Origin: Candidatus Sungiibacteriota bacterium
GTDB taxonomy: Bacteria > Patescibacteriota > Minisyncoccia > Sungbacterales > JACQCQ01
Assembly: GCA_016201505.1 (NCBI GenBank)
Contig: JACQCQ010000012.1
Coordinates: 10,187-74,186 of the forward strand
Direction of reading: 5' to 3'
DNA length: 64,000 nt
Part shown: positions 1-54,633 of the stretch, piece by piece
Numbering within the stretch: position 1 is the first letter of the stretch
Layout of the letters: every line of letters begins with the position of its first letter
Made by a program: the position numbers and the translations under genes
The notes under the pieces: generated by a model
The model's input: only the letters and a program-made list of their open reading frames with translations
Databases searched by the model: none
What the model was told of the DNA's origin: nothing

Positions 1-590
1 ATCGGATACTGGAGTGCTACGGCATTCGGCGTTAAGCGATCAAGAATTGAGCCAAGTGAACGCTCAAACGAAGCGCCCGTGCGGTCAAGCTTGTTAATAA
101 AACAAATGCGCGGCACGCGATAATCATCGGCGTACCTCCAGTTGGTTTCGGACTGCGGCTCGACCCCGGCGACGCCGTCAAAAATCACGACTGCGCCGTC
201 TAAAACCCGGAGGGACCGTTTTACTTCAACGGTAAAATCAATGTGGCCCGGCGTGTCGATGATGTTGATGCGGTATTCGCCAGTTTTCTTCAAATTTTTA
301 ATTTGATCAGAAAACTGAGCGTCCGCCAAAGCACTATGCGAGGGCGGACTTCCACTGGGATAAAGATAACTTGGTGTCCAAAAGGTGTTCGTCGCGGCCG
401 AGGTAATCGTAATACCGCGTTCCCGTTCTTGCTCCATCCAGTCCATTACCGTATCGCCCTCATGCACTTCGCCGATTTTATGCGAAACGCCGGTATAGAA
501 CAGAATGCGCTCGGACACGGTCGTTTTACCCGCGTCAATGTGGGCAATGATCCCGATATTCCGCGTGCGTTCAAGTGGGTATTCTCTCAT
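1..590 (-). CDS. fusA: elongation factor G (N-terminal GTPase part; gene continues beyond window start)
   Basis: rc translation from ATG at 590-588 gives [35 protein letters not shown]...[12 protein letters not shown], the G1/G3 GTPase motifs of EF-G. Position downstream of rpsG in the str-operon order. Confidence 0.85.
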
Positions 591-632
591 ATATCAACGA
601 ATAACGAATTCTGTACGAATAAACGAATCTAC

Positions 633-1031
633 TCAACCTTCGAAATTGATAATTCTTTTAAACTTCACTCCGGATTTCGCAAAATTAGCTAAAATCGCCA
701 ATTTTAGATTTGTACTTTTTAAATATTGTAATACTTGATCAATATGTCGCTTCGAAAAATTATCTCCCTTCTTCAATTCCAAAACAATCTTTTCATCAAC
801 TAGAAAATCAAGCTGATATCGGCCGATAAGCGCTGTTCTAAATTTTAAAGGAAAAGATACTTGCTCTTTAAATGGGAGTTTAATTTCTCGCAAAGCTTGA
901 GCTACGCTTCTTTGGTAATATCGCTCATGATGTCCCGGCCCCAGCTCATTGTATACAGAAAATAGGATACCGATGATTTGATAACTTAATTGAGGAAAAA
1001 TTAGATCAGGCCTCCGTACGCTGTTAACCAT
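633..1031 (-). CDS. GxxExxY family protein (PDDEXK-like), inserted between fusA and rpsG
   Basis: 132-aa ORF with ...GPGHHERYYQ... matching the GxxExxY signature. Confidence 0.55.
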   Translation of the reverse strand: MVNSVRRPDLIFPQLSYQIIGILFSVYNELGPGHHERYYQRSVAQALREIKLPFKEQVSFPLKFRTALIGRYQLDFLVDEKIVLELKKGDNFSKRHIDQVLQYLKSTNLKLAILANFAKSGVKFKRIINFEG

Positions 1032-1536: not shown

Positions 1537-1671
1537 GCCAAATTCTAAATTCTAAATTCTAATATCGAAATCATAAACAAATTCAAAACTCTAAATTCCA
1601 ATGTTCGAAAAGCGTGTTTTGATTTTTGAATTTTTGTCATTTGGATTTTTTTCGGATTTAGGATTTCGTGC

Positions 1672-2085
1672 TTAGGATTTAGGCCTTTTAGCTCCATATT
1701 TCGACCTCTGCTGTTTTCGGTTGGTGACACCGGTTGTATCCAGAACGCCGCGCACGATGTGGTATCTAACGCCTGGCAGGTCTTTGACGCGGCCGCCGCG
1801 GATCATGACGACCGAATGCTCCTGCAGAGTGTGCCCCTCGCCGCCGATATAGGCGGTAACCTCCATGCCGTTGGTGAGCCGCACCCGAGCCACCTTACGC
1901 AACGCCGAGTTTGGCTTTTTGGGCGTCATCGTGGTTACTTTGATGCAGACTCCGCGCTTAAACGGCGAAGGATAATAAGCCGGCCGATTTTTCAAGACGT
2001 TAAAACCCCGCTGCAGAGCGGGCGATTTGGACTTCGTTTTTCCGGGATGCCTGCCGTATTTTGTCAGCTGATGGATTGTGGGCAG
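1672..2085 (-). CDS. rpsL: 30S ribosomal protein S12 (roughly 13-aa insertion after the SPAL motif; start uncertain)
   Basis: Track ORF 1672..1995 (TTG start) matches the S12 core: [52 protein letters not shown]. In-frame upstream sequence to about 2085 encodes [25 protein letters not shown], the canonical S12 N-terminus. The only candidate start there is CTG, with a stop at 2098-2100. Confidence 0.8.
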
Positions 2086-2266
2086 AGTTTTCTCGCCTCA
2101 AATTTTTCTGCGCCTTAATTGTATATAGCCCTACGGGCTGGAAATGATCCCACCGCGAGCCCGACAGAAAAACTTTTAGGCTTCGTTTTTAAACTTTTTT
2201 AAAGCCAGCCCTTCCGGGCTTTTAGGAGAACCTAAAAAGTATACCTATACGGGCTTAGGCAGTCAA

Positions 2267-2869
2267 TTAACGAAAGATTCTGCCCGCCAGAGTCCAAATA
2301 AAGAATATAAAAGCCATCAAGATCAAAAACCCGTATCGCTCCAGAAAGATTTGCGCCTTGATAAGCCGGCCGCCGAGCAAGGCAAAGAGTATCTTTGATC
2401 CGTCCAGCGGCGGGATAGGGAAGAGATTAAATACACCGAGCACTATATTAATTTGAACAATCGTGCCGAGGATGGCTAAAAATCGCTGGAGCATTAAGGG
2501 GGCAAGCAACGGCCCGAGCCCTAAAAGGTGCGTCGCGAGCACCAAGCCGAAAATCAGGGCCATGAGAAAATTGGCGCCGACGCCGGCAATGGCCACGAAA
2601 AACGTGCCCTGCCGAATATTTTTAAAATACATCGGGTTGAAGGGAACAGGCTTGGCCATGCCAACCAGCGGCCCGCCGACAAGATACATAAAGAACGGCA
2701 GCAAAATACTGCCGAAGGGATCGATGTGAGACAGTGGGTTCAAGGTGAGCCTGCCCGCATCTTTGGCCGTCGGGTCTCCCAGTGAATAGGCAACCAGTCC
2801 ATGCGCGACCTCATGGACAATAACCGAAAACAAAAGAATTAACGCAAAAAATATTATATCAATGGCCAT
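2267..2869 (-). CDS. peptidase M50 / site-2 protease family membrane metalloprotease
   Basis: 200-aa multi-TM ORF with HEVAHG (HExxH) in TM1 and a downstream LDG motif. Confidence 0.75.
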   Translation of the reverse strand: MAIDIIFFALILLFSVIVHEVAHGLVAYSLGDPTAKDAGRLTLNPLSHIDPFGSILLPFFMYLVGGPLVGMAKPVPFNPMYFKNIRQGTFFVAIAGVGANFLMALIFGLVLATHLLGLGPLLAPLMLQRFLAILGTIVQINIVLGVFNLFPIPPLDGSKILFALLGGRLIKAQIFLERYGFLILMAFIFFIWTLAGRIFR

Positions 2870-2953
2870 AGGTTTGCGGGAGGTATATTTCTATGCTAGG
2901 GTACAAAATGCATTTTACCTCTATACGAGAAAAACGCTAGCAAATAAATACTC

Positions 2954-3145
2954 ATGAAAGCCTGTGCCATTTGCGGCAAAACTTCGTCACAAAAGGGCGT
3001 GCGCGCCCTGCTACGCGGCCACTATAATCCGACAACGACTGTTCGTGTCTACCCTAATTTGCAATGGGTAAGACTGCCAAACTCGCCTTCGCGCGTCAAA
3101 GCCTGCGCGAAGTGCATCAAGGCGCTCGCGAAGCAGAAAAAGTAA
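2954..3145 (+). CDS. rpmB: 50S ribosomal protein L28
   Basis: 63-aa ORF: MKACAICGKT..., C-x2-C...C-x2-C and basic; matches L28. Confidence 0.85.
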   Translation: MKACAICGKTSSQKGVRALLRGHYNPTTTVRVYPNLQWVRLPNSPSRVKACAKCIKALAKQKK

Positions 3146-3160
3146 CTCGGGAATTTCCTA

Positions 3161-3204
3161 AAACTCAAAAGCTCCCGCAGGCGGGAGCTTTTGAGTTTTA
3201 GTCG
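3161..3204 (+). terminator. rho-independent terminator after rpmB
   Basis: Perfect hairpin aaaactcaaaagctcccgc agg cgggagcttttgagtttt followed by T-rich sequence. Confidence 0.7.
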
Positions 3205-3509
3205 CGTATTCTGAATTTAGCGCGAACCCATTTTGAACGAAATTGCTGATGCAATTTCGCAAACCTTTCCCAAATCGGGAATGGATAAAATCAAGCAGTG
3301 AAGCCGAAATTAACCAAAAACTCCAAAATTATCACGAGCTAAAACAAGTTGCGGAAAAAATTGGAACGAACCGCCTCATCCTCAACCGGAAAGTCCAAAT
3401 GGATTTTTCCGAACCGTGGGGATTTGCCGCTTTGCGCCTTGCGCAAAGCGGAGACGCCGAGGGGCGAAGCCCCGAGGCAACCTCTTCCGAAAATTTGACT
3501 TGTCTTGAA

Positions 3510-3583
3510 TGGTCGGGGCGCGGGGAATCGAACCCCGTCTACAAGACCCCCAGCCTTGCGTACTGCCGTTATACGACGCCCCG
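3510..3583 (-). tRNA. tRNA-Pro (anticodon GGG)
   Basis: rc gives CGGGGCG..TCGTATAACGGCAGTAC..CAAGGCTGGGGGTCTTG..CGGGGTTCGATTCCCCG CGCCCCG ACCA. It has a 7-bp acceptor, a GTTCGATTCC T-arm and a CU-GGG-GG anticodon loop, and the CCA is encoded. A TATAAT box lies about 10 nt upstream on the minus strand (3593-3598). Confidence 0.85.
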
Positions 3584-3628
3584 GATGGGGTCATTATACG
3601 AGCAAAAGTAAAACGGGGCTATACCTAT

Positions 3629-3910
3629 TTAATCTTTTATCATCCACTTGCGAAAACGCCGGCGCTCAACGTATAAAACTTGCCACCAATACTTCCCCTC
3701 GAAAAAACCAAAAATCGCGCCGATAACCACCGCGCCAATAAATCCATAAGAGCCAACGAGAATCCAGGCATCCCAAGAAAAGCCCAGACTATAACGGACA
3801 AAATCTAACGTGAGAAAATATGAATACCAAATTTCCGCCAGGCCGAATATCATCGAAACTAAAAGCGTGCCGAGGAGACTAAATAACAAGATGTAAATTT
3901 TTTGTTTCAT
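3629..3910 (-). CDS. small hydrophobic membrane protein (93 aa), hypothetical
   Basis: ORF with 2-3 predicted TM segments and no recognisable SD. It sits immediately downstream (on the minus strand) of a terminator-like hairpin and a long structured leader. Confidence 0.45.
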   Translation of the reverse strand: MKQKIYILLFSLLGTLLVSMIFGLAEIWYSYFLTLDFVRYSLGFSWDAWILVGSYGFIGAVVIGAIFGFFEGKYWWQVLYVERRRFRKWMIKD

Positions 3911-3924
3911 CTTATTCTAGTATA

Positions 3925-3958
3925 CCAAAACACCCTGCCGTATGGCGGGGTGTTTTGG
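3925..3958. terminator. symmetric hairpin flanked by A-run/T-run (bidirectional terminator or attenuator)
   Basis: ccaaaacaccctgcc gtat ggcggggtgttttgg. On the minus strand it reads hairpin plus UUUUGG, followed 17 nt later by the ATG of the 3629..3910 gene. Confidence 0.6.
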
Positions 3959-3959
3959 T

Positions 3960-4719
3960 ATTAGGAATTGATGGAACCTGAGGACCGCTACGAAGCCCGG
4001 CGAGGGACTTTTAGTCCTCAAGCGGAGGGAGCTGGAGTGTTTCGCAAATATCCAAGTGGGTGACGAGATGTCGTGTAAAGCGACATTTGGGCTGTCCCCT
4101 CGTAAAATGTGATTCAGTCGAAACTAGCCATATCTCCCCCCGCTTGAGGGCTAAAATTGTTGAAAGCGCAGTGGAGAACTTTTTCAGTTCTCATATAGAG
4201 GGGATGGTGCGTTTCGCAAGAATCCAAGGTGGGTGACGTGAATGCCGGCAAGCGGCATCTGCTGTCCCCTAGTAAAGTGATTTGGGAAAGCCCAAGCCCC
4301 TCTATATAAAAACTAAAAAGAACTTTAAAAAGTAACGCATGAGCGGGAAAAAGGAACCAAGGGAACCAAAAGCCGCCGGATCATGCCCACTCTTTCAGTC
4401 TCCCGTATCTGATTGTACCTACCGCGAGTCGCGGGCTTGATCTCTCTAGGCGATGAGAATCTCGGTCATGCAGTGAGCCGCTAGCTGACAGTCATTCACC
4501 CAACTCTGCAACTCCATTATACAGGCAGAGGGCCAGTCGCTGGGGATACGATGTGGACAGGCCGTGAATGAAGCCTAGGAAAAGTGTCGAGCAAAAATGC
4601 CTTTTGGCTTTATAGTAACGAGGCGAGCCGGTTAGTCACACTTGCCCCTTGACAAATTTATTTGGCAGCGAAACTGATACTCAAAAAGATTTTAAAAGCG
4701 CGAAAAAATTCGCCAAATT
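3960..4719. ncRNA. unclassified structured noncoding region containing two tandem paralogous RNA domains (4016-4150 and 4194-4308)
   Basis: About 800 nt with no credible ORF. The two domains share gtttcgcaa(a/g)(t/a)atccaag(g)tgggtgacg...gctgtcccct(c/a)gtaaa. Each is closed by its own 11-15 bp long-range stem (cctcaagcggaggg/ccccccgcttgaggg, and tatagagggg/cccctctata). The inner hairpin shows compensatory changes: atgtcg..cgacat in copy A versus atgccg..cggcat in copy B. Confidence 0.35.
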
Positions 4720-5202
4720 CTAGAGGAGTTTAGCGACTTGGGCGAGCTCTTCGTAAATTCCTTCGATCAAATCATAGGACCGGGCTGCCTCGAGCGTCAC
4801 CCAGGCGGAATCAACAATATCCGGATCATGCAATACCACCTCACCGGATTGATATCGCGCCCAAAACGAGAGTCCGTGTACCCAAACGTTGTGCACCGGG
4901 TGACGGAAGACGTAACTAGTAAGATAGCGCAGCGTGTCGATTGCAAGACCCGTCTCCTCCATGACTTCACGCTGGATGGCTGGCTCCAGGGCGCCGTACC
5001 AGCACTGGTAGGATTTTGTGGTTGGCGGCTTTTTTACAAAATCATCTTCTTCAAACTTCCCGCCGGGAACTGTCCAAAGACCAGGGAACGCGCCTGCAGT
5101 TTCCGATCGCTTCACGATCAGCATTCTCCCATCCTCGCGCACGATAATTGCGGTCACGGGATTGATGAACAGTCGTTTTACAAGCTTATCCGAGATTTCC
5201 AT
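4720..5202 (-). CDS. NUDIX hydrolase
   Basis: Nudix box GGKFEEDDF...REVMEETGL (Gx5Ex7REUxEExGU). Start taken at the internal Met MEISDKL (5202), which leaves an 18-nt gap to ndk. Confidence 0.8.
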   Translation of the reverse strand: MEISDKLVKRLFINPVTAIIVREDGRMLIVKRSETAGAFPGLWTVPGGKFEEDDFVKKPPTTKSYQCWYGALEPAIQREVMEETGLAIDTLRYLTSYVFRHPVHNVWVHGLSFWARYQSGEVVLHDPDIVDSAWVTLEAARSYDLIEGIYEELAQVAKLL

Positions 5203-5219
5203 GAAAGAGCCCCCTCTGG

Positions 5220-5816
5220 TTAAAACATAACATCCTCTTCTGATCGGGTATATGCATGAATCTGGTTCCGGCGAAACCACATGCGGAGTTCATGCGCGGC
5301 TTCTGCAGAATTACCCGACGCATGAATGATATTTCGGACAGCCCGTTTTCTGCCGTTCGCCAGTGCCGGCGAATCAATCGAGTAGTCCCCGCGGATTGTT
5401 CCCATTTCAGCCAATGCCGGAATTGTGGGACCGACGATTTTTCGCACCATTTTGATTGCGTGTACACCCTGGATCGCCATTTTTACCACTGGTCCGGAAG
5501 TCATAAAATCAACTAGCCACTTACGGACCCGCAAGCCGATTTTATACGGATCAGCCGAGCCGTATTCTTTTTTGAAATTAACCGGAATTTTAAATTCGGT
5601 GTAGCCGCGGATGGTGTTTGTCCCGAGTCCTGTAATCCAAGCCTTATCTTTCGGATAATGCAGATCCATTTCTTTGGCGGTCGCCCAAATCATTTCAAGT
5701 GCTACAATTTTAAGTCCGCGCTGTTCAATGCGGCGAATAATCTCACCGGAGAGGCCGCGCTTTACGCCGTCTGGTTTTACAATGACGAATGTCGTCTCTT
5801 CGTGAAGTTTTGGCAT
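5220..5816 (-). CDS. ndk: nucleoside diphosphate kinase with roughly 35-40 aa internal insertion
   Basis: TFVIVKPDGVKRGL..., ...DFMTSGPVV..., NIIHASGNSAEAAHELRMWF with the catalytic His. Start taken at MPKLHEE (5816). Confidence 0.85.
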   Translation of the reverse strand: MPKLHEETTFVIVKPDGVKRGLSGEIIRRIEQRGLKIVALEMIWATAKEMDLHYPKDKAWITGLGTNTIRGYTEFKIPVNFKKEYGSADPYKIGLRVRKWLVDFMTSGPVVKMAIQGVHAIKMVRKIVGPTIPALAEMGTIRGDYSIDSPALANGRKRAVRNIIHASGNSAEAAHELRMWFRRNQIHAYTRSEEDVMF

Positions 5817-28869: not shown

Positions 28870-29139
28870 ATGAGGTCATTTAAGCAACTTGAGAAAATCG
28901 CAAAGGGATTCTCAAATCATCGAAGAATCCAGATTTTAGATCTTCTGCAAAAATACCCCGAGCTATCCGTCGCCGATATCGCGGAAGCCCTCGGAGTAAA
29001 CTTCAAGACCATATCGGAGCATATTCGCCGCCTGGCCGAAGCCGGACTGGTCCTCAAACGTTATGAGGCACAAACCGTGAGACATAAGCTGACACCACGG
29101 GGAATAGGTATTCTTAAATTCTTGAGAATATTAGAATAA
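28870..29139 (+). CDS. ArsR/SmtB-family winged-helix transcriptional regulator
   Basis: 89 aa: ...RRIQILDLLQKYPELSVADIAEALGVNFKTISEHIRRLAEAGLV..., an HTH_5-type motif. Confidence 0.8.
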   Translation: MRSFKQLEKIAKGFSNHRRIQILDLLQKYPELSVADIAEALGVNFKTISEHIRRLAEAGLVLKRYEAQTVRHKLTPRGIGILKFLRILE

Positions 29140-29140
29140 A
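29109..29140. promoter_or_regulatory. second copy of the operator-like repeat (overlaps the regulator's last codons); a third partial copy lies at 29170-29185
   Basis: tattcttaaattcttgagaatattagaataaa is a 22/24 match to aattcttgagaatatgagaataaa upstream; tattcttgagatag recurs at 29170. Confidence 0.5.
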
Positions 29141-29598
29141 CGTCGATAAAACTAAATTCTTTTTGTGCAGTATTCTTGAGATAGTTCGAACCCTCGTTCG
29201 CTAAAGCTATAGACGGGCAAAGCGCATTTCGCCGCCGCAGGCGGCGAGAAACCCCCCGCGAATCCGCCAGCTGGCGGACGGAAAGGCGGCGGCTCGTACT
29301 GAGCGAAGTCGAAGTGAGCCGCACCGACTTGTCCGCCGAAGTTTTACTGTGTCCTGCCGAAGCCATAGGCGAAGGAGGAACGAAGGCGGATGACAATTTC
29401 AAGTTTTTGAATGATTTAAGCATAAATCATTCCAGTAAATTTTTCAATGAAAAATGATTGAAAAATTTACTGCTTTGGCGGCAAATTCTTTTATGAAAAT
29501 ACAATCTCAAAATTTAATAAAAAAGAAAGGAGCCGTACCCGTAGGTCGTGCTCCTGATGGCTGGGGCTCGTCGCTTGGCCGACGGAACTGGTGGGGCG

Positions 29599-30054: not shown

Positions 30055-30139
30055 TGGTGCCGGGAGAGGGAGTCGAACCCTCATGAGCTTGCGCTCGCAG
30101 GATTTTGAGTCCTGTGTGTCTGCCAGTTCCACCACCCCG
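30055..30139 (-). tRNA. tRNA-Leu (anticodon CAA), type II with long variable arm
   Basis: rc gives GCCGGGG TGGTGGAACTGGCAGACAC..CAGGACTCAAAATCCTG..(long variable arm)..GGGTTCGACTCCCTC..CCCGGC ACCA. Confidence 0.85.
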
Positions 30140-30321
30140 GCAAAATGATACGGGGCAAATCTGCCAGCCCGCCCCGCACTAATTCCCACAAATTACTTGC
30201 AAACTATATCAAAAGCTAGCTCTAGATGCTACTCGGCATATGAGAATTACATAATCGGAATTTAGTGCGGAGTTCCGCCACCGCGGCATTACAACGCGCA
30301 TACTATTTATACAATCCTCGT

Positions 30322-30356
30322 TTGTCAACGAAAAAAGCCTGCGGTATTCTAATGAC
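30322..30356 (+). promoter_or_regulatory. sigma70-like promoter placing the TSS at the parB ATG (candidate leaderless mRNA)
   Basis: TTGTCA, a 17-nt spacer, TATTCT, then 6 nt, then ATG at 30357. There is no SD. Confidence 0.35.
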
Positions 30357-31331
30357 ATGGATGAACCAACTCCGAACCAGAATGGAGAAAACGACGCCGA
30401 AATAAAACCAAGAGCAGAAGCCTCCCCCATCGCCCCCCCCATCGGATTTACGAGACCCGAGGATGAAAAGCCCTTAGCCGTTCCTTTAACCGAACGGCGC
30501 GCACATGAGAGCATTTTTTGGATTGAGCGAGTCCTGATTGAGCCCAATCCCTATCAGCCGCGGCGGGAGTTTGACCCAAAGGCCCTCGAAGATTTAGCCG
30601 AATCGTTAAAAACGCACGGTATGCTCCAGCCGATTTTGGTCTCTCGCGTCGAGATAGAAACGCCGCGGGGCTGGGAAACAAGATATCAATTGATCGCCGG
30701 TGAGAGGAGGTGGCGAGCCGCGGGGCTTGCTAATATGGAGCAGATTCCGGTGATCATCAAGAAAGAGCCGACGAATCGGATGAAGTTGGAGCTGGCACTG
30801 ATTGAAAATGTCCAGCGCGAGGATTTAAATGCGATTGACCGCGCCAAAGCCTTCCGCCAATTGATTGATGATTTTAAATTAATGCAGCGGGAAGTTGCCG
30901 AACGCATCGGGAAATCGCGTGAAATGGTGGCAAACTCATTGCGGCTGCTCTCACTTCCGCCCGATATGCAGGAGGCGCTTTCCAGAGGCGAAATCGCCGA
31001 AGGGCATGCGCGGGCAATTTTAATGGCGGGCGATAATCCGGAACTGCAGCGTCAACTTTTTAATGAAATCGTAACCTACAAATTAAATGTCCGCGAAGCG
31101 GAAAACGCAGCGCGCCGCATCTCCGGTAAAACTTTAACGCCGCGGCGCCGCTTGGGATCATCGGGTGATCCGGAGACTCAAGACTGGCAAACAAGGCTTC
31201 AGGAGATGTTTGGCACCAAAGTTCAGGTTCAGAAAGTCGGTGACCGAGGAAAAATCGTCATCGAATTCTACTCCGACGAAGAGCTTCGTGGGATCATCGA
31301 TAAAGTCCTCCGCGACCGTGGTGCGCTTTAG
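30357..31331 (+). CDS. parB: chromosome partitioning protein ParB/Spo0J
   Basis: ParB box: IEPNPYQPRREFDPKALEDLAESLKTHGMLQPILV...GERRWRAA, with an HTH following. Confidence 0.85.
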   Translation: MDEPTPNQNGENDAEIKPRAEASPIAPPIGFTRPEDEKPLAVPLTERRAHESIFWIERVLIEPNPYQPRREFDPKALEDLAESLKTHGMLQPILVSRVEIETPRGWETRYQLIAGERRWRAAGLANMEQIPVIIKKEPTNRMKLELALIENVQREDLNAIDRAKAFRQLIDDFKLMQREVAERIGKSREMVANSLRLLSLPPDMQEALSRGEIAEGHARAILMAGDNPELQRQLFNEIVTYKLNVREAENAARRISGKTLTPRRRLGSSGDPETQDWQTRLQEMFGTKVQVQKVGDRGKIVIEFYSDEELRGIIDKVLRDRGAL

Positions 31332-31365
31332 GTATTTTTGAAACTGGACACTGTAGTAACTGAGA

Positions 31366-31791
31366 CTATTTTTTCTTAAATGGCGGGATTTGGATCACTT
31401 CGAACTCATGTTGATTTAGATTAAAGACAACTTTATAAAATTCAAAAAACCCATTCTGGCCTAGTAAAGCAGTCGTCTTAAGGTCAGGGATTATAAATGC
31501 TTTTATGTTGAATTCTAAATTATCCTGCGCAAGCTTCAAGATTAAATCGCAACGATATGTTTTTGTCTTAGGGCCTACGATTCCCTGTGTCAAGTCTTCT
31601 TCGCAATCCTCTAATTTTATTCCGAGGGCATCTGCAATCTGACCATTGATATAAGTATCGGTCGCGCCAGAATCTACTAGCGCTTTGATTTTTAGTGATA
31701 GTTGATTTTCGGGATTTTTGAAGACAACATCAATCAGGGGATAATGATTATACTTGTCTTTCCCCATAGCACTGGCATATTGAAACTTCAT
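31366..31791 (-). CDS. retropepsin-like (clan AA) aspartic peptidase
   Basis: VDSGATDTYI (D-S/T-G-A motif) in a 141-aa protein. Local GC is about 36%. Confidence 0.55.
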   Translation of the reverse strand: MKFQYASAMGKDKYNHYPLIDVVFKNPENQLSLKIKALVDSGATDTYINGQIADALGIKLEDCEEDLTQGIVGPKTKTYRCDLILKLAQDNLEFNIKAFIIPDLKTTALLGQNGFFEFYKVVFNLNQHEFEVIQIPPFKKK

Positions 31792-31798
31792 TTATCAA

Positions 31799-31987
31799 TT
31801 ACGACAGAGGCGCTAAACCAACATTTTCTTCAGGCACAAGGAACAAAGAGTAATCTCTACTTTTTTTATCAGCAATTTCTTTTACTTCTTTCACAGAATT
31901 TCCAACAGCAATTACATCATCATCTTCCAGCGCAACCCATTTCTTTTGATGATTCTTAACTAGAGTGGTGATGTCTCCAATATTCAT
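31799..31987 (-). CDS. small DUF-type protein (62 aa) co-oriented 7 nt upstream of the aspartic peptidase
   Basis: KKWVALEDDDVIAVGNSVKEVKEIA pattern. It resembles the small partner protein often found next to retropepsin-like genes in prokaryotes (DUF5678-like; recalled from memory, not verified). Confidence 0.4.
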   Translation of the reverse strand: MNIGDITTLVKNHQKKWVALEDDDVIAVGNSVKEVKEIADKKSRDYSLFLVPEENVGLAPLS

Positions 31988-32258
31988 GGTTTTAGTATAA
32001 CCCGTAACTCTATATTAGTTACATTTCTGCAAATGAATGTCAACATGACAAGTCATTAAGCCTAAAATTTTACTTAGTTCCAGATTCTCTAGTTTCCACT
32101 ATGAAAGCACCCTTCCTGAACTCACCCGCGTAATTTGACTACAGCGTAAATCCAAGCGACCGCGGCGCGGTTTAGATTTTCTTAAACTAATTTAATTATA
32201 TTAATTTTTTTGTTGGGTAGGGCATATCTATTTTACTTTTGTCTTTTCCAAAGACGGT

Positions 32259-32816
32259 TTAACTTTCATTTTTAGATTTCTTTGAGATTCTTTTCCTTAA
32301 GAACTCTATTCCAATTGAAGTGAGAATGCCGATGATGGCGCCGCCTGCAATGTCGGAGGGCCAGTGGACGCCGGCCGAGACGCGGGCGAGACAGATGATG
32401 GCAGTGAGGCCAAACAAATACCAGCCGAATTTTTTGTTATAAAACCAAATGGACATGGCGAGCGCAAAGAAAAAAACGGCGTGGCCCGAAGGAAAACTGC
32501 CCGAGGTTTCGTGGGGGATTAAGGGATTAAAATGAAGCGCCATAAAGGGTCGCGGGCGGTAGTATACAAAGCGAATGATCTCGGTAATACCAAAGCGGGC
32601 GATAACTCCTGAAAAAAAAGCGTAGAAAATGACCCCCATCTTGGACAACCGCTGTTTGCCGTCTATATCAATTAAGATAAACGGCAAAATGAGAACGGCG
32701 GCGGCAACAAGATACGGCAGAGTAGATCCTATAAAAACAATCAAAAAATCGAGAAGACGATTGACCCCAGCAAGTGAATGAAAAAAATAAAGTAGAGCTA
32801 AATCAAAACCCATCAC
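32259..32816 (-). CDS. PAP2 family membrane phosphatase (undecaprenyl-diphosphatase-like)
   Basis: KxxxxxxRP...PSGH...SRxxxxxHxxxD pattern: YRPRP, SFPSGHA, ARVSAGVHWPSD. Confidence 0.8.
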   Translation of the reverse strand: MMGFDLALLYFFHSLAGVNRLLDFLIVFIGSTLPYLVAAAVLILPFILIDIDGKQRLSKMGVIFYAFFSGVIARFGITEIIRFVYYRPRPFMALHFNPLIPHETSGSFPSGHAVFFFALAMSIWFYNKKFGWYLFGLTAIICLARVSAGVHWPSDIAGGAIIGILTSIGIEFLRKRISKKSKNES

Positions 32817-51731: not shown

Positions 51732-53348
51732 CTACATTTCTTCGGGAGCGGAAATCCCCAAAAGATCCAATGATTTTTTTAAAACAATTTGAGTGGCCCT
51801 CGCTAATTGAAGCCGCGATTTTTTAATATCGGCTGCTGCATCCAAGATGCGTTCTGTCTCATAGAACACATGAAAGTTATGCGCGAGCTCGTAAGCATAG
51901 CGGATGAGTCTCGAAACGCGATAATCCGCGGCAATGTCACGCAGCACATCCGGAAAATCAATTAATTTCCAAATTAAACGATCCTCCGATTCTGAAGCCA
52001 GGAGCGAGACATCGAAATCAGATTTTTCATACGGCTCTTTTATGAAAATCGAACAAAGGCGTGCGTGCGCATACTGAATATAGAAGACCGGATTTTCTTT
52101 GGATCTTTTTTTAGCCAGATCCAAATCAAAATCAATATGCGTCTCGTGATTTTTTTCTAAAAAGAAATACCGCGCCTGATCGAGACCGACTTCATCAATC
52201 AATTCATCAATGGTGACGTATACTCCTGTGCGTTTGGACATCCGCCGCTCAACGCCATTTTCCATCAAACGAACAAGCTGCATTACGATCACTTCAGATT
52301 TCGCCATCCCGATAATTTTCGCTACTGCCTGAATCCTGGAAACGTAACCATGATGATCGGCACCCAAAATATTGATTTTGTGATTAAAACCTCGTTTCTT
52401 GGTTTCTAAATAGTGAGCAGCATCAATAAAAAAGTACGTCGGGAGTCGGTCAGAGGTGACTAGAACTCGATCTTTATCATCTCCATATTTTTTCGTTTTT
52501 AACCATCTGGCACCATCCCTGTCAAAAATAAGATCAGGGGAAATAGATTTCGCAAGCTGTTCAAATTCGATAGTTAAAGGCGGCCGGCTTTGGCGAATAT
52601 CTCGTTGTTCGGATGTCCACCTATCAAAATTGATTTTCATTTTTTTCTCAATTACCGGTCGAATGAGATTTTTAACAAAATCATTTGCAACATATATCCC
52701 GAGAAGCTGAGGATCTTTTAAATAAAGATCCCAGTTCAATGTTTGTTTAGAGTCAAGCCATTCTTTCAAATAATCCCCATGATAATATTTCTCGTCATCT
52801 AGCACCTTGCCCGCTATAGCTAAAATTGAAAGTCCAAGTGTTGTGATCTGGTTCCCGGAATCATTGATATAATATTCACGTTCAACCTCAAAACCCTGCG
52901 AGGCCAGAACGCGAGAAAGCACGTCGCCCAAGAATCCGCCGCGGCCGTTGGCAAGTGTTAAAGGACCGGTTGGATTGGCTGAAATAAACTCGACTTGGAT
53001 TTTTTCGTTGAGGCGACTCTGATTCCCGTAGCGCTCTTTTCCATCTAAGATTCGTGTAAATTCTTTTTTTACTTCAGACTCGGAAATTTGGAAATTCAGG
53101 AATCCCGGAGGAGAAAACGTAATCGTGGCAATGGCCGGATCGATAATTTTTCGCATTAACATCTCGGCCACATCTTGAGGTTGCTTTTTTTCAAGGCCCG
53201 CCAAAACGAGAGGTAAATTGGTGGCATAGTCACCGAGTTCGGCCCTTGGCGGGTGTTCAACCGAAAATGAAACCCCCCCTGGAATCTCCACATTTTTTCG
53301 CAAGATTTCTATAATTCTTTCTCTCATGCCTATGATGTATCTTATCAT
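51732..53348 (-). CDS. argS: arginyl-tRNA synthetase
   Basis: Class I aaRS with N-terminal Add-1, a HIGH region (ANPTGPLTLANGRG), MSKR and a DALR anticodon-binding domain. Confidence 0.9.
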   Translation of the reverse strand: MIRYIIGMRERIIEILRKNVEIPGGVSFSVEHPPRAELGDYATNLPLVLAGLEKKQPQDVAEMLMRKIIDPAIATITFSPPGFLNFQISESEVKKEFTRILDGKERYGNQSRLNEKIQVEFISANPTGPLTLANGRGGFLGDVLSRVLASQGFEVEREYYINDSGNQITTLGLSILAIAGKVLDDEKYYHGDYLKEWLDSKQTLNWDLYLKDPQLLGIYVANDFVKNLIRPVIEKKMKINFDRWTSEQRDIRQSRPPLTIEFEQLAKSISPDLIFDRDGARWLKTKKYGDDKDRVLVTSDRLPTYFFIDAAHYLETKKRGFNHKINILGADHHGYVSRIQAVAKIIGMAKSEVIVMQLVRLMENGVERRMSKRTGVYVTIDELIDEVGLDQARYFFLEKNHETHIDFDLDLAKKRSKENPVFYIQYAHARLCSIFIKEPYEKSDFDVSLLASESEDRLIWKLIDFPDVLRDIAADYRVSRLIRYAYELAHNFHVFYETERILDAAADIKKSRLQLARATQIVLKKSLDLLGISAPEEM

Positions 53349-54110: not shown

Positions 54111-54528
54111 GGGGACGCATTTGATTCGACGGATCATTTACATTTAGGCGAAACGCAGACCGAGAAGTTCGGCCAACTCGCTTGCCCTTCCATAGCCCTT
54201 GGCGAAGGAGGGTAAAAGTTCCGAACAATAATACGTGCAAACGTATTCAAATTTGATGGTGCTTTGGCACCCGCTATGGCGTAAGTTATAGCTGCTTCCT
54301 TGCGAAAGAATCGCAAGCATCGGACCATGATGCCTCTTGGTGGGTTCCCGGTGTTATATCGAGGCTGGACTCTCGCCAACCGGTAACGGGAGCGACGAAT
54401 ACCGGAAACGATCGCTGAGTATGTTGCAGGATGTGAAGCTCGCGATTCGTACATAATCCTGCTATGTCTGTAATCATCGTTTTGTTTAGATGAAGATTCG
54501 GACGAGGAGTCACTCTCCTCCGTCTCCA
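54111..54528 (+). ncRNA. ssrA: tmRNA (transfer-messenger RNA)
   Basis: 5' GGGGACGCAUUUGAUUCGACGG matches the tmRNA 5' consensus. Acceptor GGGGACG/CGUCUCC has a G3:U70 wobble. T-arm GAGGA GUCACUC UCCUC, then discriminator A; CCA is not encoded. An internal reading frame GCA AAC GUA UUC AAA UUU GAU GGU GCU UUG GCA CCC GCU AUG GCG UAA gives tag ANVFKFDGALAPAMA. It lies immediately downstream of smpB. Confidence 0.8.
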
Positions 54529-54633
54529 TTAGAACGAATGCAAAAATTAAAGGGCAAAATGCAAAATTTAGGTATCGCCTCGCGATGATTTTTAAATTGT
54601 CATTTTAATTTTTGATATTTAAACTCTAATTTT

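Follow-up and report, generated by a model that had tools for sequence, protein, structure and literature searches.

An AT-rich islet at the end of parB in Candidatus Sungbacteria carries a DUF5678-retropepsin gene pair that may work like a toxin-antitoxin module

The stretch of DNA under study (the window, 64 kb in length) belongs to a Candidatus Sungbacteria MAG and contains, at the end of the parB gene, an AT-rich insert of about 0.85 kb in which a gene for a small DUF5678 protein is followed by a gene for a retropepsin-like aspartic protease. We favour the view that this insert is a horizontally acquired, self-contained cassette whose protease acts as the effector in the manner of a type II toxin-antitoxin or abortive-infection module, a tentative reading to which we assign a probability of roughly 0.4. 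Two-gene cassettes made of a small protein and a retropepsin are best described as a kind already known, though uncharacterised; what is new here is the quantified and near-obligate linkage of DUF5678 to the protease, the fact that relatives do not have the pair beside their parB, the leftover piece of a parB end at the insertion site and the recurrent duplication of target ends at other loci.

The arrangement of the islet was assembled independently from two sequencing runs. An earlier interpretation made from the DNA letters (the sequence-only reading) had described two open reading frames in a compositionally deviant region, and both observations hold: the frames lie on the minus strand exactly 7 nt apart, and positions 31366-31987, with a GC content of 0.363 where the window averages 0.490 (sd 0.036, 622-nt windows), are the most AT-rich stretch of the 64 kb (within the lowest 0.3% of 622-nt windows). 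The features of the region are the following, in window coordinates and with the basis of each assignment in brackets.

30357-31331, plus strand: parB, the host gene whose 3' end is the insertion target (Pfam ParB_N, HTH_ParB and ParB_C; blastn against relatives)
31312-31345, plus strand: direct-repeat copy 1, the functional parB 3' end (...RDRGAL, stop) with about 14 nt downstream (local alignment)
31366-31791, minus strand: retropepsin-like (clan AA) aspartic protease, 141 aa (Pfam, family alignment, AF2, Foldseek, profile matches)
31792-31798, minus strand: intergenic spacer of 7 nt between the protease and DUF5678 genes (sequence)
31799-31987, minus strand: DUF5678 small protein, 62 aa, upstream co-transcribed partner of the protease (Pfam, AF2 single-sequence)
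31988-32155, minus strand: the cassette's own upstream region, 168 nt (sequence)
32156-32189, plus strand: direct-repeat copy 2, an isolated remnant of a parB 3' end (...SDRGAV, stop, in the frame of its TAG) (local alignment)
32259-32816, minus strand: PAP2-family phosphatase, host gene flanking the cassette on its other side, part of a conserved PAP2-FolD-SHMT backbone (Pfam, synteny)

The 141-residue protein is a member of the clan AA retropepsin-like aspartic proteases, as had been proposed from its motif VDSGATDTYI (residues 39-48). Indeed, all three Pfam families put forward by the sequence-only reading, that of the partner protein included, are matched above cutoff, the protease scoring 33.7 bits with gag-asp_proteas (gathering cutoff 28.2) and 30.8 bits with Asp_protease_2 (gathering cutoff 24.3). 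Its sequence presents both hallmarks of the clan, the catalytic hydrophobic-hydrophobic-D-T/S-G-A and the C-terminal hydrophobic-hydrophobic-Gly motif: a single DSGA (D40, within ALVDSGAT at 37-44) is followed by a flap-like G70-x-x-G73 and by LLGQNGFF at 109-116 (LLGQ, 109-112). An exhaustive HMMER search of 1.84 billion representatives returned only 354 relatives at E<=1e-3, the best with 42% identity, and these have in common the signature hh-D-S/T-G-[ASCT], a Gly-rich flap-like 'GIxG' and hhG[QR]xxFF[DE]x[FY]. Residues D40, G42 and F116 are invariant in an alignment of 41 relatives, and D-S/T-G is retained in essentially all of the 150 best, which argues for selection on catalysis. The AF2 model built on the 41 relatives (mean pLDDT 96.3) has the retropepsin fold, and Foldseek matches it with probability 1.0 and TM values of about 0.5-0.7 to HIV-1 PR, Ddi1, HTLV-1 PR, RSV PR and APRc, the best structural match being this last protein, a membrane-anchored protease of Rickettsia. 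By sequence, the family profile likewise matches Ddi1, Ty3, RSV PR and APRc, with Ddi1 as the best profile-to-sequence match among solved structures (4.5e-6).

Retropepsins with one catalytic aspartate per chain are active only as homodimers. As the window protease has one Asp-Ser-Gly motif per chain, it would have to homodimerise for activity, and by this analogy it should work only as a homodimer with a two-Asp active site. Inspection by eye evidenced no N-terminal hydrophobic signal or transmembrane segment, for which reason the protein is probably cytoplasmic. Within the clan, it is homologous to the small prokaryotic proteases described by TIGR03698 (clan_AA_DTGF) and TIGR02281 (clan_AA_DTGA), with alignments that span most of each model, but the respective scores of 25.1 and 24.5 bits are under the cutoffs of 57.35 and 57.95 and place it outside both subfamilies. 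Ddi1 has in common with it a retroviral-protease-like domain and the overall fold; however, that domain is there part of a larger shuttle protein which also has UBL and UBA domains, whereas the window protease consists of a single domain and is encoded beside a bacterial partner gene. APRc (PDB 5C9B, 5C9F), RimB and RloA resemble it in having the retropepsin fold, a single D-T/S-G per chain and activity as dimers. RloA carries a signal peptide, and RimB and RloA of Pseudomonas are found in operons with ATP-grasp proteins and are involved in polyglutamate cleavage (PMC12239564). In contrast, the window protease has no visible signal or transmembrane segment and is paired with DUF5678 instead; its neighbours are ParB and PAP2, and ATP-grasp is absent from the 25 neighbour families listed for the module at large. 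Membership of the RimB/RloA type was rejected, as there is no ATP-grasp partner.

The 62-residue partner, which contains KKWVALEDDDVIAVGNSVKEVKEIA, is a member of DUF5678 (PF18929): the family guess made from sequence was borne out by Pfam with 42.9 bits against a cutoff of 23.2 (4.2e-11) and 48 of the 49 profile positions covered. A single-sequence AF2 model (pLDDT 77.6) predicts a beta-beta-alpha-beta core at residues 15-52 flanked by disordered tails. Conservation in the family is concentrated at W17, A19, G29 and V51-P52, the hydrophobic-Pro pair being nearly invariant. The window protein is an atypical member, having a net charge of -3 against a family median of +4 and being devoid of the usual G15 and P46. 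Neither a structural nor a sequence relative of DUF5678 was found in the PDB, no HTH, RHH or AbrB-like fold or profile match and no recognisable antitoxin or DNA-binding fold came to light, and a literature search on the family returned nothing relevant.

The sequence-only reading had also suggested that a small protein followed by a retropepsin-like protease is a recurrent arrangement, and in bacteria this is clearly the case. We have carried out two surveys, one anchored on the protease (33 loci in GTDB genomes) and the other on DUF5678 (80 of at least 270 metagenome loci, 74 of which have enough downstream sequence). In these samples, which are biased to LLGQNGFF proteases and CPR-type DUF5678 by the small sub-alignments that seeded the surveys, a small co-oriented DUF5678-like frame (of the WVAL...G.T..A...VP type) lies directly upstream of the protease at 31/33 genome loci, and an intact protease lies directly downstream of DUF5678 at 70/74 metagenome loci, the remaining four comprising two decayed protease remnants and two solo genes. 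When tested individually, 19 of 25 partner frames pass the Pfam model of DUF5678. The two genes are therefore a near-obligate pair in the bacteria surveyed, and the pair has a patchy distribution across phyla: the protease-anchored loci come from Acidobacteriota, several CPR lineages, Omnitrophota, Desantisbacteria and Bacteriovoracaceae. Most often the two genes overlap by 4 nt (34 of 65 gaps), as compared with the 7-nt spacer in the window.

The genes around the pair differ from locus to locus: 143 Pfam families are represented among its 145 immediate neighbours, most of them with housekeeping roles (for example YidD, FtsZ, Hsp70 and tRNA synthetase). Matches to defence models among these neighbours are only scattered, and no third gene recurs beside the module. 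Unrelated neighbours and the lack of a recurrent third gene indicate that the pair behaves as a self-contained two-gene module. The module may also be incomplete or repeated. DUF5678 is intact and the protease broken or missing at six loci (L022, L034, L056, L061, L108 and L112), against a single locus with an intact protease and no partner (L010), an asymmetry of small numbers in a sample biased by collection. The solo DUF5678 at L108 adjoins an MNT/HEPN-like pair, as read from motifs only. At L096 and L097 the module is present in tandem copies, and the alternative description of these two loci as carrying a huge flanking repeat was rejected accordingly.

Examination of the islet boundaries reveals an insertion signature. 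An imperfect direct repeat of 31-35 nt, derived from the 3' end of parB, brackets the islet; its copies align locally with a score of 32, while 1,960 random comparisons averaged 15.9 and never exceeded 28. The second copy overlaps a terminator-like hairpin (32158-32172) and sits between the cassette and the PAP2 stop codon. The ParB proteins of relatives have C-termini of the form ...VLQ(D/E)RG..., which identifies this second copy as a relic of the parB end, and the blastn alignment of parB with relatives reaches to within 8 nt of the stop codon, from which it follows that parB itself is intact. The inserted unit measures about 810 nt (repeat-to-repeat distance 844 nt) and comprises 168 nt of upstream sequence, the two genes and a 23-nt trailer; these two genes are its only ones and no recombinase lies within the repeats. 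Rfam detected no RNA family in the islet or in the spacer. The coding strand of the upstream region carries a TTGACA hexamer at 32043-32038, with no canonical -10 at 16-18 nt after it. By eye, promoter-like hexamers are also seen in the corresponding inner flanks of other units delimited by repeats.

Relatives whose ParB is 73-79% identical have a common backbone around this site (DprA-TopA-RelA/SpoT ... tRNA-Leu/parB ... PAP2-FolD-SHMT-Sua5), and in none of them is the pair found within about 6 kb of parB. Among 5.8 billion proteins, a word-indexed search retrieved nothing but the query itself for either protein, and the 1.84 billion representatives include no homologue above 42% identity. 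Taken together, the low GC, the absence of the pair beside the closest relatives' parB, the lack of a close homologue and the duplication of the parB 3' end support the horizontal acquisition that had been suggested from composition; the pattern expected otherwise, with every relative keeping the pair in this place and at an unchanged GC, is not what was observed. As to remnants of att sites or of an integrase, the former have a counterpart in the direct repeats, whereas no integrase or recombinase family appears among the 25 neighbour families listed, and an integrase-borne island was rejected for lack of an integrase.

The insertion signature of the window is not an isolated case. A direct repeat spanning the module (score >=32) was detected at 12 of 60 non-redundant loci and at 3 of 106 position-shifted controls (20% against 3%; Fisher p=4e-4). 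These flanking repeats are locus-specific, 31-142 nt in length and 77-100% identical, with a repeat-to-repeat spacing of 700-980 nt, and where genes are readable (L031, L032, L050, L091) they are second copies of the 5' or 3' end of a host gene on the flank. The compositional contrast also recurs, the GC of the pair being below that of its flanks at 26 of 31 genome loci. A scan of viral contigs and a tblastn search of plasmids and phages with three family members turned up no relatives. Duplications that are long, variable and often diverged, and that come with no transposase or integrase, are a poor fit to classical transposition. Better suited would be a Campbell-type event in which a circle integrates through short homology, or homology-facilitated illegitimate recombination; possible routes of spread are a single crossover of such a circular intermediate, or illegitimate recombination following natural transformation. 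That the modules constitute an uncharacterised protease-based class of toxin-antitoxin or abortive-infection systems, widespread in CPR bacteria and Acidobacteriota and built as recombinase-free cassettes of about 0.7-1 kb that integrate at host-gene ends and duplicate 30-140 nt, is a wider proposition which we consider rather unlikely as a whole.

In the mechanism that we propose for the window pair, the cassette would have inserted into the last codons of parB, duplicating 31-35 nt of the target and leaving the gene intact, and would from there work like a type II toxin-antitoxin or abortive-infection module. The effector would be the protease homodimer, and DUF5678, made just ahead of it from the same operon, would be a dedicated partner that holds the protease inactive. 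This small protein could block dimerisation; alternatively, its tail could sit in the active-site cleft and perhaps serve there as a pseudo-substrate that is cleavable at V51-P52. Once DUF5678 is lost or displaced, proteolysis would be released. Toxicity, neutralisation, physical interaction and any role in defence are all inferred at this stage. What favours a selfish or defence module of the toxin-antitoxin type is the combination of a small gene first and an enzyme second, frequent overlap, autonomy, patchy spread across phyla and insertion behaviour. Indeed, the layout is that of type II systems, bicistronic, with a small and a larger gene that are tightly linked and horizontally mobile. 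These systems also resemble the module in the upstream position and frequent overlap of the small gene, in the autonomous, patchy spread into chromosomal housekeeping regions and in the occasional orphan small genes and tandem copies. The higher frequency of orphan DUF5678 genes than of orphan proteases points to the same reading, as do the position of L108 beside its MNT/HEPN-like pair and the tandem modules.

A further indication comes from candidate defence systems. About half of the protease family matches the PADLOC models PDC-M52B (23/41, best E 6e-10) and PDC-M08B (20/41, best E 1e-10), which points to a toxin-antitoxin-like or defence role; the window protease itself matches PDC-M08B and PDC-M52B weakly (E 4e-4 and 0.013, respectively). 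PDC-M08 and PDC-M52 are two-gene candidate defence cassettes that occur inside BREX, DISARM or type I RM loci (Payne et al., bioRxiv 10.1101/2024.01.29.577857). They resemble the module in their 'A then B' order with a retropepsin-like B of about 130-140 aa, and differ from it in location, since DUF5678 modules sit among housekeeping genes and not in BREX, DISARM or RM loci. Moreover, neither the window DUF5678 nor 25 partner proteins matched any PADLOC model, A components included, which indicates that the window pair is not a member of PDC-M08 or PDC-M52. A literature search for PDC-M08/M52 by name returned nothing relevant.

Several observations speak against a toxin-antitoxin or defence function. 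DUF5678 has no known antitoxin fold and no PADLOC match, and its window member departs from the family in charge and in the missing G15 and P46; the window protease matches the PADLOC B models weakly, and palindromes upstream of the operon are enriched only weakly. The neighbourhoods are mostly housekeeping ones and not defence islands, and no relatives turned up on the viral contigs, phages and plasmids searched. We know of no characterised toxin-antitoxin family with an aspartic protease as toxin, and none was found in the open-access literature. The main rival to the toxin-antitoxin-like reading is a non-toxic one, in which a dedicated protease is paired with its client: DUF5678 would be a precursor matured by the protease, for example by cleavage at the conserved hydrophobic-Pro bond that releases or removes its C-terminal tail, or else a ClpS-like adaptor that delivers substrates. 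We consider this arrangement possible if on balance unlikely.

Less likely is a switch resembling ImmR/ImmA, in which DUF5678 would be a DNA-binding repressor of cassette or host genes and would be cleaved by the protease upon a signal. The basic character of most DUF5678 proteins is consistent with it, and so is the inverted repeat GTAACT-CTATATT-AGTTAC (N7 loop) at 32004-32022, placed between the TTGACA hexamer and the start codon. This repeat had been singled out by the sequence-only reading: it is indeed present, but a 6-nt arm is attained by 18% of shuffled 82-nt upstream regions, and as a possible operator it lies within chance. Across loci, operator-like palindromes upstream of the operon are weakly enriched (32% vs 18%), with arms of at least 7 nt at 16% of loci and in 5% of shuffles. 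However, no HTH, RHH or AbrB-like fold or profile match was found, the window protein is acidic, and there are no regulated cargo genes beside the pair; we consider a repressor switch quite improbable. Finally, a degraded retroelement remnant (Gag-like plus protease) or a native, vertically inherited AT-rich pair are both very improbable indeed, and the former was rejected: even though the best Pfam models are named after retrotransposon or retroviral proteases and the best single-sequence PDB match is the Ty3 protease, at 100 or more loci the pair has neither a reverse transcriptase nor an integrase in its vicinity and the proteases form a compact bacterial clade with its own hhG[QR]xxFF signature, while absence from the locus in the closest relatives and a target duplication flanking the islet indicate that the pair was not inherited vertically.

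To our knowledge, little has been established about bacterial retropepsins that stand alone, and a dedicated small partner is not known for any of them. The module described here is widespread and nothing about it overturns expectations; nevertheless, the finding that one retropepsin clade has in DUF5678 what amounts to an obligate partner gives a concrete context to a domain of unknown function, and the pair offers a simple two-gene system in which to ask how cells keep a retropepsin in check. In addition, the recurrent duplication of host-gene ends around a cassette that carries no integrase hints at how small modules may move in the reduced genomes of CPR bacteria.

The tRNA-Leu(CAA)/parB unit (window 30055-31331, tRNA-Leu on the minus strand and parB on the plus strand) is kept in the relatives compared, namely at the parB-region loci L003, L005, L007 and L009. 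Comparison with these same loci evidences that in the window genome the unit is inverted with respect to the DprA-TopA-RelA ... PAP2-FolD-SHMT backbone, and it is because of this inversion that the 3' end of parB points here towards PAP2 and not towards RelA/SpoT. The cassette, formed by the DUF5678 gene and the retropepsin-like aspartic protease gene, sits in the window genome at this junction of the parB 3' end and PAP2.

The spacer between the cassette and PAP2 (31988-32258, minus strand) was analyzed by RNA folding and is more structured than its shuffled versions (z = -3.0, with 1 of 200 shuffles folding as well). The predicted fold contains the orphan parB hairpin, a terminator-like structure overlapping a relic copy of the parB 3' end, as well as a hairpin directly past the stop codon of PAP2. 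The spacer has no match in Rfam. Regarding the protein encoded by the window DUF5678 gene (31799-31987), it is an outlier of its family, having a net charge of -3 against a median of +4. Lysine is found at position 15 and tyrosine at position 46; among 103 homologues, 93% show glycine at the former position and 92% proline at the latter. The window protein retains W17, A19, G29 and V51-P52.

At other loci DUF5678 is found in tandem, duplicated or solo. L096 and L097 carry a tandem pair of modules (1669-2701), in which DUF5678 and the protease are followed, 240 nt on, by another DUF5678 where the contig ends. L012 (region 2500-3900) holds a segmental duplication, about 660 nt long, that takes in a copy of DUF5678 and part of the adjoining membrane-protein gene (its 5' end), leaving one DUF5678 without protease directly upstream of a complete module. 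A complete module also lies directly downstream of a solo DUF5678 (2988-3251) and the 60-aa ORF (MGRPLRIEFEDGFYHITSRGNERKKIF...) that follows it in L015 (region 2988-3575); judged by eye, this ORF resembles a truncated IS200/RayT-type Y1 transposase. In L108 (431-1623) a solo DUF5678 precedes a pair that, judged from motifs, looks like a nucleotidyltransferase (MNT) and HEPN toxin-antitoxin system, the RNRVVHRY motif being that of the HEPN-like member.

Two other low-GC patches are present in the window, the second at about 400-1200 (GC 0.375-0.40) and the third at about 52100-52900 (GC around 0.39), the latter within a 538-aa ORF (51732-53348, minus strand). The features of the second patch, and a tmRNA gene elsewhere in the window, are the following:

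633-1031, minus strand, PD-(D/E)XK nuclease family protein (PDDEXK_3), in the second patch
243-692, plus strand, ORF of 149 aa without Pfam match, overlapping or adjoining the PDDEXK_3 gene
54111-54531, plus strand, tmRNA gene (Rfam, 62 bits)

On the strand opposite to the tmRNA gene, a 131-aa ORF at 54134-54529 appears in the mechanical ORF list; this ORF is probably spurious.

Between RelA/SpoT and tRNA-Leu the window carries two ORFs without Pfam match:

29061-29423, minus strand, ORF of 120 aa
29599-29820, minus strand, ORF of 73 aa

By position, this interval corresponds to a stretch whose gene content differs among the relatives. In L003 the gap from PAP2 to tRNA-Leu (1548-5313) is occupied by four ORFs, none with a recorded Pfam match, and a partial tRNA-Leu copy (5625-5661; 37 nt, 97% identical) lies beside the intact tRNA-Leu. 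Together these have the appearance of an element integrated at tRNA-Leu, and the region is therefore regarded as a hot spot.
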